This document shows, piece after piece, positions 6,518 to 26,476 of a DNA stretch of 64,000 nucleotides. The DNA is taken from assembly GCA_965222605.1 (NCBI GenBank), contig OZ244960.1:3392001-3456000 (forward strand). Reading direction: 5' to 3'. The stretch's first letter is position 1; every line of letters begins with the position of its first letter. Made by a program: the position numbers and the translations under genes. This DNA comes from Candidatus Latescibacterota bacterium (lineage in GTDB: Bacteria > Latescibacterota > UBA2968). The notes under the pieces were generated by a model, which worked only from the letters and a program-made list of their open reading frames with translations, did no database searches and was not told where the DNA came from.

Positions 6518-7330
6518 TTACACAAGCACAGCTACGCCCTCAACGTATTCTTCAAAGAGTGCGATGTCTTCTTTCATCATGTCGGGGTTGTCTTTGAGGA
6601 AGAAGCCGACGAGGGCCACGTCGTTTTCGCGCATGGCTTTGCCCATGGTTTCAAAGGCTTCGAGGATGGGTTTGTTGCCGCCTGCGAAGACTTTGTAATG
6701 TACGACGGGACAGGGGATGGTGGCGATTACGCCGAGCATTTTGGCGCGGTCTTCTTCTTCCCACTTTTCGCCTTCGTCACTGTGGTGCGCGCTGCGAGAG
6801 CGGTCCGTGGGGTTGTAATAACTGCACATCTGGAAATCGGGGTCGAGGTTGTCGCGCACCCATTCGTGTGCCGCGGGTTGATGGGCTGCAAATCCAGATG
6901 CGACGCCCGCATTGGACATTGTGTCGAGAGCTTCGTAAAAATTGTCCCACTGTTCTGCGGCATACCAGTTATCGACCACGCCGCCGTGGATATAGGTGCC
7001 GCTTGCGCCCAGTTCGATGGATGCACTGAGCCATTTGCGCCAGGCATTGGGGTTGCCGCGCTCGATGCATACCTGTGCAAACCACTGGATGCTGCCGCCT
7101 TCATCCCAGTATTCTTCGAGGAGTCCCATGATGTGATCGTCTGTGCGCCCAAAGAAGGTGTTGATGCCGAGTTCTTCGGCCTGTCGCCAGGTGTCTTTGA
7201 TGCAGTTGGGCGTGTAATAATCGGTCATTTTTTTGCTGCGTTCTCTGGTCTGGTGCGAAAACCCGCTGAACGGGTTGCCGCCAATACAAATGCCCGAGAC
7301 ACTTACTCCGCCTATGTTTGCGTATCGCAT
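6518..7330 (-). CDS. Hypothetical protein, aldo/keto-reductase-like fold
   Basis: VSGICIGGNPFSGFSHQ N-terminus, YKVFAGG; AGGAG RBS. Confidence 0.65.
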   Translation of the reverse strand: MRYANIGGVSVSGICIGGNPFSGFSHQTRERSKKMTDYYTPNCIKDTWRQAEELGINTFFGRTDDHIMGLLEEYWDEGGSIQWFAQVCIERGNPNAWRKWLSASIELGASGTYIHGGVVDNWYAAEQWDNFYEALDTMSNAGVASGFAAHQPAAHEWVRDNLDPDFQMCSYYNPTDRSRSAHHSDEGEKWEEEDRAKMLGVIATIPCPVVHYKVFAGGNKPILEAFETMGKAMRENDVALVGFFLKDNPDMMKEDIALFEEYVEGVAVLV

Positions 7331-25185: not shown

Positions 25186-25293
25186 AATATAAACAGGACT
25201 TACGCAAATCAATAGACAAAAGGGTATTCCATCCTTAAACTTCCCGCATAGGCGCGTAACGTGAACGAGGAGGAGTTTTGATGGACAAACCGA

Positions 25294-25323
25294 CCTGTCT
25301 GCGTGCGTACACGCACAGGCAGG
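25294..25323 (+). repeat. 30-bp hairpin mini-insertion (type C), in-frame
   Basis: cctgtctgcgtgcgtacacgcacaggcagg adds CLRAYTHRQA between MDKPT and SLDYCQY. Confidence 0.85.
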
Positions 25324-25379
25324 CCAGCTTGGATTACTGTCAGTATTTGCTCAGCAGTCCGATCAACTATACGCTGACG

Positions 25380-25431
25380 CCTGCCTGCTTGCCTGCGCGT
25401 TGCGCGCAAGCAGGTGCAGATGGCAGACAGG
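25380..25431 (-). repeat. 25-bp mini-insertion (type A) with a nested 27-bp mini-insertion (type B, 25388-25414)
   Basis: cctgcctg[cttgcctgcgcgttgcgcgcaagcagg]tgcagatggcagacagg splits the codons for TLT|HFADH. Confidence 0.85.
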
Positions 25432-26128
25432 CATTTTGCAGACCACAGCGAAGGCTTCAGCCATGATATGATCAATCGGTATCTGGCCGGAGATCGCATT
25501 GCCCCGCGCTTGGTCTGGGAACATGTCAAGTCGGCTATCGCATTAACGCCAAAGGGCTATGTGATCTTCGATGATACGGTCTTGGACAAACGCCATGCGC
25601 GAAAGATAGGACTTGTTCGTCGTCAATATAGTGGCAATGCCAAAGGGGTCATCAATGGCATCGGCGTGGTCACTTGCGTTTATGTCAATCCCGAACAAGA
25701 CCGGTTTTGGATCATTGACTATCGCATATATGACCCGCAAGGCGATGGCAAGACCAAGTTAGATCACGTCGTTGAGATGCTCTCCTTGTTGGTCTATCAA
25801 AAACACTTGCCTTTTCAGACGGTATTGATGGATAGTTGGTATGCGACCAAAGCTGTGATGCTACACATTGAGAAGTTGCAAAAAATCTATTATTGTCCCC
25901 TCAAGTCCAATCGGCGTGTGGACGATTCTTTAGGGCAATATCCCTATCAGCGAATAGATAGCCTGACTTGGACAGATAGCGAATCTCACGCAGGCAAACA
26001 CATTAAAATCAGAGGCTTTCCCAAAGACCACAAGGTGAAATTATTTCGGGTGGTGTCCTCTACCGGGCACACGGAACATGTCGTGACCAACGACAAGGCT
26101 CAAAAGGATACCCAAGTGGCACAACAGG

Positions 26129-26153
26129 CCTGTCTGCCAGAAGCACAGGCAGG
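26129..26153 (+). repeat. 25-bp hairpin mini-insertion (type A)
   Basis: cctgtctgccagaagcacaggcagg equals the reverse complement of the left type A except 3 central nt. Confidence 0.85.
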
Positions 26154-26157
26154 CGTG

Positions 26158-26184
26158 CCTGCTTGCGCGCCCCGCGCAGGCAAG
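26158..26184 (+). repeat. 27-bp hairpin mini-insertion (type B)
   Basis: cctgcttgcgcgccccgcgcaggcaag equals the reverse complement of the nested type B except 2 central nt. Confidence 0.85.
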
Positions 26185-26437
26185 TCACTGGCGCTGGAAA
26201 ATTGAGCAATTCCACCGAGAGGCAAAACAAGTCACAGGGCTTGAAAAATGTCAATGCCGCTTGGCACGCATTGTGCGAAATCACATTGGGTGTGCCTTCC
26301 TCGTTTGGCTACGCCTTGAGCAGGTCGCCTATCAAACACGACAATCCGTTTATCAGGTCAAATACGGCTTGTTGGATGACTATCTCAGACAACAACTCAA
26401 AGATCCCTCTATTCTCATGACCCTTGCGTAAGTCCTA

Positions 26438-26476
26438 ATAAAAATAGCGCGTTGGTTTGTGGAGAACCAACGCGCT
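26438..26476 (-). terminator. Intrinsic terminator-like hairpin (minus strand)
   Basis: agcgcgttggtt-tgtggag-aaccaacgcgct preceded on + by an A-run. Confidence 0.6.

Follow-up and report, generated by a model that had tools for sequence, protein, structure and literature searches.

Introduction

How does a transposase gene come to be interrupted five times within 1.15 kb by inserts of only 25–30 nt, and do such inserts point to a system directed at insertion sequences (ISs)? The question is raised by an IS701-like element in a 64,000-nucleotide stretch of DNA, hereafter the window, from the genome of a Candidatus Latescibacterota bacterium (contig OZ244960.1 of GenBank assembly GCA_965222605.1, positions 3,392,001 to 3,456,000). 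This genome, G000, consists of one 6.34-Mb contig (C1) with 51% G+C, in which the window corresponds to C1:3392001-3456000; other Latescibacterota genomes are coded G001, G002 and so on, fetched loci carry L numbers, and sequencing runs carry X numbers. A sequence-only reading of the window had proposed that an enzyme acting in trans writes the five inserts, as inactivating tags, preferentially into mobile genes. Our analysis bears out the inserts and leads to another interpretation. They are copies of a non-coding family of mini hairpins in sponge-associated Latescibacterota, previously undescribed, that resembles the repetitive extragenic palindromes (REPs). The IS in the window was inactivated recently, as a by-product of insertion, and the share of hairpins found in ISs fits tolerance in dispensable, abundant IS DNA together with local clustering, not a dedicated IS-silencing system. 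We give this reading as a whole a probability of about 0.68.

Results

Five hairpins in an IS701-like transposase gene

The coordinates and sequences of all five inserts are as first described (Table 1). Two types, A and B, occur twice: A1 and A2 differ only in three central (loop) nucleotides, TCT and GAA, and B1 and B2 in only two, AA and CC. A 30-mer identical to the third type, hairpin C, is present in G026, G040, G025, G028 and G008. Removal of the inserts (30 + 52 + 25 + 27 = 134 bp) leaves 1017 bp that encode 338 aa with zero internal stops, which reproduces exactly the uninterrupted frame that had been claimed, and apart from the hairpins the IS is without any other lesion. The strict pattern CCTGYYTG-N9-14-CAGGCARG has four matches in the window, against a mean of 0.01 in shuffled sequence, and none of 100 shuffles reached four. 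All four matches fall in the transposase gene, the split A1 being unable to match, and the scan found zero copies in the rest of the window, as had been judged by eye. When folding was computed for single-stranded DNA, hairpin C and both B copies gave z values of −2.5 to −2.8 and type A a weak value of about −1. The statement that each insert folds as a hairpin thus stands firmly for three of the five, type A being only a weak hairpin.

The host gene had been taken for an IS701 transposase, an identification that is upheld by the profile matches of an intact paralog, by the inverted repeats and by the presence of multiple copies. The protein of the intact paralog matches Pfam PF13546 DDE_5 (37.8 bits, cut-off 27) and PF01609 DDE_Tnp_1 (35.2 bits, cut-off 23), and the restored window protein aligns with it over the full length except for a 9-aa insert. 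Similarity to the paralogs and to the copies in G002 (1107–1115 bp) begins and finishes at the two terminal inverted repeats listed in Table 1. G002 holds eight copies of the IS, and related copies number at least 75 across two other genomes.

Table 1. Positions of the insertion sequence, its transposase gene and the hairpins in the window, with examples of mini-repeat D elsewhere in contig C1 of G000 (^ marks an insertion point).
Feature	Position	Strand	Description
IS701-like insertion sequence	25194..26438	+	about 1245 bp including 134 bp of hairpin inserts; terminal inverted repeats AGGACTTACGCAA and TTGCGTAAGTCCT
DDE transposase gene	25281..26431	+	split over three frames by the inserts; 338 aa with 134 bp removed
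Hairpin C	25294..25323	+	30 nt, frame-preserving; site AAACCGA^CC; fold −9.2 kcal/mol, z −2.8
Hairpin A1	25380..25387 plus 25415..25431	-	25 nt, split by nested B1
A1/B1 composite	25380..25431	-	52 bp, frame-shifting; site CTGACG^CATTTT in gene orientation
Hairpin B1	25388..25414	-	27 nt, inside A1 in the same orientation; fold −10.5 kcal/mol, z −2.6
Hairpin A2	26129..26153	+	25 nt, frame-shifting; site CAACAGG^CGTG; weak fold −4.6 kcal/mol, z −1.0
Hairpin B2	26158..26184	+	27 nt, 4 bp downstream of A2; site CGTG^TCAC; fold −10.5 kcal/mol, z −2.5
Mini-repeat D, example	C1:233210-233226		outside the window
Mini-repeat D, example	C1:3012205-3012221		outside the window
Mini-repeat D, example	C1:3723866-3723882		outside the window

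Empty sites and independent support

Alignment to other copies of the IS gave an empty site for each of the five inserts. Two mutually identical, intact paralogs in G000 (at 3.01 and 3.72 Mb), which share 76% DNA identity with the window IS, encode 347 aa from MDKP and are seamless across all junctions. The eight G002 copies, with 90% identity in the coding sequence (CDS), have an intact frame and 0/5 inserts; they are open for 340 aa from stop to stop, and their 1017-nt CDS from the MDKPT start corresponds to 338 aa. A truncated copy at G000:C1:2120921-2121474 has C and A and lacks the nested B, and it represents the empty site for the insertion of B into A: its unsplit A lies at G000:C1:2121269-2121293, at a site identical to that of A1. 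The empty sites read AAACCGA^CC, CTGAC(G)^CATTTT and CAACAGG^(C/T)GTG^TCAC, with zero duplicated bases and 0–2 boundary bases shared at the junctions; insertion without target duplication, as originally suggested, is borne out at the five filled/empty pairs of the window. On the branch leading to the window IS we counted 23 synonymous and 13 nonsynonymous changes, and on the branch of the active G002 copies 20 and 15.

Contigs of four runs from four studies (X3, X7, X13 and the RNA-library run X16) carry the inserts, which are therefore neither assembly artefacts nor private to one assembly. The runs that hold this stretch include sponge metagenome libraries. One X3 contig, from DNA, covers the entire stretch and deviates from it only by A>C at position 25326, a difference common to all four runs. 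The contigs of X16 retain the inserts as well; DNA was possibly present in that library, so this is evidence neither of transcription nor against splicing. A joint that skips an insert precisely was found in none of the contigs of the four runs, in which rare variants are dropped and which therefore do not bear on excision; the three joints detected are unrelated skips of 245–530 bases. With the C of the four runs at 25326 the restored codon reads CGC (Arg), the residue of all paralogs, and with the A of the window it reads AGC (Ser).

A dispersed family of mini hairpins

The hairpins belong to a dispersed family. The pattern has 10 matches in G000, against 0 for a reversed-pattern control, and it is present in 33 of 41 relatives; with a slightly stricter pattern, 47 of 168 Latescibacterota genomes have the element, the reversed controls giving 0–1. 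Eight high-count genomes, all in two families of one order, have 28, 29, 38, 52, 55, 77, 83 and 124 matches; the sister species within their genera have at most one, and the distant genome G047 holds six typical copies. From the loci fetched we obtained 133 unique instances, which reduce to 81 independent flank contexts and 55 distinct variants. Lengths in the family range from 24 to 32 nt, with 30 contexts at 27 nt, 25 at 30 nt and 10 at 25 nt.

All 55 variants begin with CCTG and finish with CARG. The outer stem comprises 7 bp, in which CCTGYCT pairs to AGGCARG; a single T.G wobble is usual on one of the strands. The stem is accompanied by a two-base GC bulge (GC at positions 8–9 in 52/55 variants) and a variable inner stem of 4–6 bp, whose pairing is kept by compensatory changes around a free loop. 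The hairpin pairing is under selection: among 16 distinct 27-mers, 93.8% of cells pair, double compensatory changes occur in three of the four inner-stem pairs, and the covariation score was reached by none of 500 shuffles. Stop codons, counted in all six frames, occur in only 10 of the 55 variants. The initial description, of duplication-free insertions of hairpins whose stems are fixed and whose loops are free, is thereby supported.

Over hairpin C (25288-25333) the contig depth exceeds that of the flanking IS about 8- to 70-fold, at 663 versus 78 in X3 and 5782 versus 84 in X13, and length variants of this hairpin in the same two runs have three bases fewer, or GCC or CCC added in the loop. 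The excess depth and the length variants mean that those communities hold many other hairpin copies and subfamilies. A search of a limited library, from which absence in print is not proven, returned neither an account of hairpins of this kind in Latescibacterota nor one of REP-like elements that hit IS genes.

Target site, nesting and clustering

The rule that junctions fall between a purine and a pyrimidine, noticed at the five inserts of the window, holds generally. A purine occupies position −1 in 69 of the 81 contexts and a pyrimidine position +1 in 68; G stands at +4 in 48, and A at −2 (5 contexts) and T at +2 (4 contexts) are rare. The resulting consensus, R^Y-S-N-G, is directional in the orientation of the element, and insertions are found in either orientation. 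In 42/81 contexts the base at −1 is the complement of that at +1 (G^C or A^T), compared with 29.2 in shuffled flanks, and 4 of 2000 shuffles reached 42; complementarity is absent from the flank pairs farther out. Target duplications of 2–4 bp show no excess in the 81 contexts.

Many insertions lie inside other small palindromes. Hairpin-in-hairpin contexts, such as that of B1 in A1, recur in G029 and G040, the inner element recurrently following position 8 (TG^CG) or sitting in the loop, and hairpins are also nested in an unrelated mini-repeat that we call D (..GGTGTA^CAACTGCGNNAGCAGTTCAT). Subfamily-specific target recognition was considered and dropped, as the same A(TCT) variant occurs in five different flanks.

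Insertions are also clustered. Among the 83 sites of G029 there are 20 adjacent pairs less than 1 kb apart, against a random mean of 1.8 and a maximum of 8 over 5000 trials, and in G000 five of the approximately ten family members lie within 1.15 kb. Tolerance alone does not explain the clustering. The clusters are young. Two ISKra4 copies in G029 that are about 99.5% identical are separated by about nine substitutions in about 1.9 kb (hand count) versus four hairpin insertions, all at A^T and each giving a filled/empty pair without target duplication; the same two copies share two further in-frame hairpins, of 36 and 27 nt. Clusters outside ISs include three elements at three sites in an outer-membrane protein gene (one of them matched in two registers) and three in an open reading frame (ORF) of 434 aa with no known function. 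In the simplest reading, insertion favours the neighbourhood of existing hairpins, and dispensable loci let the resulting clusters survive.

Genomic contexts of the hairpins

Inserts seen in ordinary or accessory genes are 27 or 30 nt long and keep the frame. Their hosts are a linker of a thiamine pyrophosphate (TPP) enzyme, a xanthine-dehydrogenase-like subunit, two sigma-54 regulators, the C-terminus of purD, the N-terminus of a TolC-like protein, an outer-membrane barrel protein, a RecD2-like helicase, two DNA methylases (including a C5 methylase) and a Cas4/Cas1 fusion. In this fusion (L183, G029:C1:2491000-2499500; NF049935, 740 bits), a 30-nt hairpin at positions 7225-7254 of the locus lies in-frame in the Cas4 part. 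Frame-breaking copies (25, 28 and 29 nt) were seen in transposase genes, in intergenic DNA and in one DUF5131 gene, and further sites are intergenic or at gene ends.

Hairpins, 1–6 per gene, are carried by transposase genes of four genomes that represent at least ten IS families or model types. The IS701-like gene of the window is the G000 case. In G001 the hosts are IS1634 and a relic of the window's own IS with an independent 30-mer at CGCATA^TATGAC; in G029 they are IS982, DUF4096/IS5, IS3, ISKra4 (two copies), IS1182, NF041680 (IS701-like) and DDE_Tnp_4/IS5, and in G025 DDE_Tnp_1_4. By our own reading, about 17 of 72 contexts outside G000 are in or beside transposase ORFs, in a sample that includes chosen cluster loci. 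When sites were sampled in genome order, transposase ORFs held 5/25 in G029 and 2/27 in G001.

Other hairpins travel on larger repeats. In G040, 18 of 30 instances belong to one MITE (miniature inverted-repeat transposable element) with inverted ends CAGYCCGTTGAAAAAGTC, and the high count of this genome is largely due to hitch-hiking, because the MITE carries a 27-mer. This MITE (loci L147-L176) has several internal deletion variants, and B is nested in the 27-nt hairpin in four copies. About 13 of 27 instances in G001 ride on D or on one other repeat.

Mini-repeat D is about 27–30 nt long (..GGTGTACAACTGCGNNAGCAGTTCAT), forms a 6-bp hairpin and has at least 25 copies in G000 (examples in Table 1); in G001 it is found at L086, L095, L097, L100, L102, L103 and L112, flanked by tandem octamers (ACGAATAG). 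It is a favoured landing site (GTA^CAAC) of the CCTG hairpins. D also forms the in-frame 27-bp insert (ERGTTAPAV) of both intact IS701 paralogs, and it is absent from the window IS and from the G002 copies.

These distributions are best explained by a scheme in which insertions would persist wherever they are tolerated: in intergenic DNA, in other repeats, in-frame within genes (27 or 30 nt, mostly stop-free), and at any length in dispensable ISs. New insertions would land preferentially near old ones, so that some loci are hit many times, and the window IS would be one such locus.

Discussion

Comparison with known systems

REP elements are the closest known relatives of the Latescibacterota hairpins. 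REPs are described as palindromes of 20–40 bp with intragenic copies, including double hits in one ORF, and with insertion into small target palindromes; one class, tagged CGTC, is without a known dedicated transposase (PMC3733652). For REPs and their doublets (REPINs), together with the REP-associated tyrosine transposases (RAYTs), the likenesses are imperfect palindromes in tens to hundreds of dispersed copies, patchy occurrence among relatives and frequent clustering, with some copies inside small palindromes or ORFs and mobilisation thought to occur in trans (PMC3733652; PMC3116915). By contrast, the Latescibacterota hairpins are without the unpaired GTAG tag, and their flanks have no GTAG or CGTC consensus; the unit appears to be a single hairpin and not an inverted doublet; and the RAYT-like genes examined in G000 and G028 are not flanked by the hairpins. 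Precise filled/empty sites and an R^Y target could be defined here. With the CGTC REPs the hairpins share small size, stems of 8–9 bp, loops of 4–5 nt, intragenic copies and the lack of a known transposase (PMC3733652). They differ in lacking the CGTC/TGTC tag, the A/T-first stem and the CCA tail, and in their bulged two-part stem with a variable inner helix. The Rickettsia palindromic elements (RPEs) are likewise selfish palindromes that are tolerated in coding sequence, with lengths and sequences that keep frames open. The short RPE-4 and RPE-6 are classed among the CGTC REPs (PMC3733652). RPE-1 is longer than the Latescibacterota hairpins.

Elements of cyanobacteria are also among the closest known relatives. 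The small dispersed repeats (SDRs) of Nostoc and its relatives, described in 2008 by Elhai et al., are said to be 21–27 nt long and to have a predicted hairpin with compensatory changes, the mechanism being unknown. They reportedly lie within one another, within short tandem repeats and within mini-transposons, and are reported as insertions in conserved genes. The Latescibacterota counterparts of these features are the nesting, the flanking of D by tandem octamers and the carriage by a MITE, in a different phylum and with apparently unrelated sequences.

Members of the IS200/IS605 group and their hairpin-only derivatives are moved by HUH-type Y1 transposases (TnpA) acting on single-stranded DNA. 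They resemble the present elements in hairpin recognition, in the lack of target duplication, in an asymmetric hairpin with wobble and bulge, and perhaps in a short motif that adjoins the insertion, the Latescibacterota hairpins lying 3' of C-N-S-R on the opposite strand. The differences lie in a single hairpin here in place of separate left and right ends, in a target that is degenerate, in an apparently weak replichore bias and in the lack of co-occurrence with Y1 genes. Palindromes tolerated in coding sequence are also known from the GC clusters and 'byp' hairpins of yeast mitochondria, of which byp is skipped by the ribosome; nothing in the Latescibacterota hairpins suggests bypassing or splicing. 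MITEs are likewise non-autonomous, moved in trans and terminally inverted in symmetry, and one in G040 carries a hairpin. The hairpins themselves are not MITEs, because they are ten-fold smaller and make no target-site duplication. ISs with CCTGYCTG ends were found at none of the loci examined.

Mechanism and search for the enzyme

Mobilisation in trans, which the sequence-only reading had postulated, is required, since the elements encode nothing. The hairpins would be moved by an enzyme encoded elsewhere, which would insert them between a purine and a pyrimidine in either orientation, without target duplication and often inside or beside a hairpin or small palindrome. As to the chemistry, our best guess, offered tentatively and by analogy, is an HUH-type single-strand DNA nuclease that would act on hairpins exposed at replication forks. 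We favour this chemistry because the mobility in trans, the absence of duplication, the R^YSNG bias, the paired hairpin with its asymmetric bulge and wobble, the nesting and the clustering resemble the substrates of IS200/IS605 TnpA and RAYT. Hairpins that stall forks would expose single-stranded target nearby, which could account for clustering. The HUH/Y1 attribution made at the outset thus has the duplication-free insertion of hairpins on its side, whereas the presence of Y1_Tnp genes does not track copy number, and the attribution remains a guess.

The enzyme had been placed outside the window, and the three Y1_Tnp matches of G000 (C1:354399, 3942318 and 5722963) do all lie outside positions 3392001-3456000. 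The expected Y1 or RAYT gene flanked by the same hairpins did not turn up among the nine loci checked. With neither a correlation with copy number nor flanking hairpins, the Y1/RAYT genes were rejected as the source of the enzyme. RAYT-like genes in G000 and G028 are flanked by GTAG REPs of their own, which have another sequence. These genes encode 180–199 aa with weak Y1_Tnp matches (G000:C1:3941600-3943300 and 5722300-5723900; L144 in G028:C7); their REPs are GTAGGGGCGACGCATGCGTCGCCC in G000 and GTAGGGGCAGGTTTSAAACCTGCCC in G028, and one REP lies in-frame inside a RAYT gene itself.

Other known systems were also dropped, from the sequence alone, as explanations of the hairpins: CRISPR repeats, as no array is formed; integron attC sites, as the hairpins have no R-box ends; and a serine-recombinase crossover at a dinucleotide, as the shared boundary bases number 0–2 and are not a constant dinucleotide.

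Are insertion sequences targeted?

The idea that inspired this analysis is that a host defence or a hyperparasite has an enzyme that recognises transposase genes or transposing DNA and writes inactivating hairpins into them. It accords with the many unrelated transposase families that carry 1–6 hairpins, with the concentration of five of about ten family members in one 1.15-kb gene of a 6.3-Mb genome, with the four new insertions that separate the two nearly identical ISKra4 copies, and with a window gene free of other lesions. Yet repeats of at least 400 bp make up about 605 kb of G000 (9.55% of the genome, in 364 segments), and only the window IS and one related relic carry hairpins; among 75 related IS copies from two other Latescibacterota genomes there is not one hit, and the eight in G002 are likewise free of hairpins. 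Many IS-borne hairpins are in-frame 27-, 30- or 36-mers, and an ISKra4 copy with two of them still multiplied. Nor are the elements confined to mobile genes: they also occur in intergenic DNA, within MITEs and mini-repeats, and inside housekeeping genes, where they keep the frame. With about 10% of the genome consisting of dispensable repeat DNA, tolerance alone predicts that ISs hold a fifth to a quarter of the insertions that survive, and the genome-order samples (5/25 in G029, 2/27 in G001) are in the range expected from about 10% repeats plus tolerance. A system that preferentially tags mobile genes is thus not supported, and we regard a dedicated IS-directed one as decidedly unlikely. A related thought, that a non-canonical trans enzyme (neither Y1 nor RAYT) writes 25–31 nt hairpins at R^YSNG with a preference for IS or hairpin-bearing DNA, seems to us rather unlikely; were it true, insertion rates in favoured loci could rival point mutation (four insertions against about nine substitutions), the enzyme might be a transposon hyperparasite or a disabling mechanism of the host, and the variable inner stem might guide target choice or copy-to-copy homing.

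Spread driven by homology would enrich IS families through their repetition and not through recognition: a hairpin would be copied between paralogs by short-tract gene conversion or homing-like break repair and would hitch-hike with ISs and MITEs. The identical C and A at identical sites in two G000 copies that differ in 32 of 142 codons speak for it, as does the same A(TCT) variant in unrelated targets, which makes strict site-specificity unlikely; hitch-hiking is seen directly in the two hairpins shared by the ISKra4 pair, in the 18 of 30 G040 instances on the MITE and in the D shared by the IS701 paralogs. The copied tracts, however, would have to be very short, with differences 9 nt upstream and 3 and 5 nt downstream of C, and the local comparison has little power (by hand count, some 8 differences over some 116 bases of flank and 0/55 in the hairpins); first insertions and clusters in single-copy genes are left unexplained. 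Such spread may contribute, and as the main explanation it appears unlikely. That the damage was imported, the IS having gained its hairpins in a highly active genome and arrived by horizontal transfer already broken, is suggested by the approximately ten family members of G000 against 28–124 in some relatives, by identical C, A and B variants in genomes of another family (f2), and by a patchy distribution even within genera, with typical copies in the distant G047. We consider it very unlikely all the same: searching 40 relatives yielded no member of this IS subfamily that has any of these inserts, the closest copies (G002) are empty, and a second, diverged copy in G000 shares two of the inserts. 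The possibility that the inserts are not mobile at all, being assembly artefacts or palindromes generated locally, has practically no chance and was ruled out by the contigs of four studies, by identical sequences in unrelated flanks in many genomes (reversed controls 0–1), and by the precision of filled and empty sites.

Several observations weigh against our own reading, that of a dispersed hairpin family moved in trans whose insertions survive where they are tolerated. That the window IS and the truncated 2.12-Mb copy share C and A at identical sites, with 55/55 hairpin bases identical, is more than simple random insertion can account for. Outside the hairpins, the 32 codon differences between these copies comprise 20 synonymous and 12 nonsynonymous ones, with 24 changes at third, 12 at first and 6 at second codon positions and no stop in either copy. 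Because of this synonymous bias and the lack of stops, both copies appear to have diverged as working genes before the frame-shifting A arrived; C and A probably arrived in each copy afterwards, through parallel insertions or through short tracts copied from one paralog to the other. The multi-hit clusters inspected in G029 lie more often in IS genes (IS982; DUF4096/IS5; ISKra4; DDE_Tnp_4/IS5; IS1182 plus NF041680; IS3 plus ISKra4) than elsewhere (about four), in counts that are not per base, so that a true preference for IS DNA may exist, and the carriage of many G001 and G040 copies by larger repeats (D and the MITE) means that raw counts overstate independent transposition. The proposed enzyme class fares no better: G040 has 77 hairpins and no Y1_Tnp match (most of these copies riding on the MITE), G021 has 75 Y1_Tnp matches and no hairpin, and G001 has 55 hairpins and only broken Y1 matches. 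No CCTG hairpin lies within about 2 kb of seven of the nine Y1/RAYT loci; of the other two, one is a broken Y1 with a hairpin about 150 bp away and one a RAYT locus with two hairpins in unrelated repeats. Orientation relative to the replichores is only weakly biased, at 40:27 in G029 and 25:18 in G001 (hand counts, with replichores inferred from dnaA), and IS200/IS605 elements are more strongly biased than this. A double-strand cut would be equally compatible with the partly symmetric target (G^C or A^T).

Significance

How REP-like and SDR-like mini-repeats move has been an open question for decades, and clean filled/empty pairs combined with recent activity are rare. The Latescibacterota hairpins offer nine precise filled/empty pairs, a measurable target motif and a defined hairpin architecture, and the genomes with apparently current activity, set beside hairpin-free sisters, provide a contrast suited to a comparative search for the enzyme. 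Elements of 25–30 bp can inactivate or decorate genes in uncultured symbionts, including those for transposases, DNA methylases and Cas4/Cas1, and gene callers will mis-annotate hairpin-bearing genes as pseudogenes or as proteins with odd inserts. Should a preference for IS or hairpin-bearing DNA prove true, it would represent a new kind of interaction between mobile elements.

Other observations

A cyanobacterial origin was considered and dropped: the HIP1 palindrome has 163 copies in G000 against about 97 expected, and was judged not enriched. Comparison of the hairpin-bearing ORFs that have no recognised function revealed no common candidate gene and only one related pair, L180 932-1561 and L185 1361-2110 in G029; these ORFs are 53% identical, have no family match and both carry hairpins, and they may represent an unrecognised repeated gene. 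Giant DNA methyltransferase ORFs of the DUF1156/D12 class (1098–1441 aa) are present at L188 (G025:C2:152500-172400) and L189 (G026:C1:3066000-3076000), in islands with SNF2/ResIII helicase-NOV_C and AAA_15/AAA_21 genes. Each of them embeds half of a Y1_Tnp-like domain (profile positions 40-121), and a DDE_Tnp_1_4 transposase gene situated between two such ORFs carries two of the hairpins.

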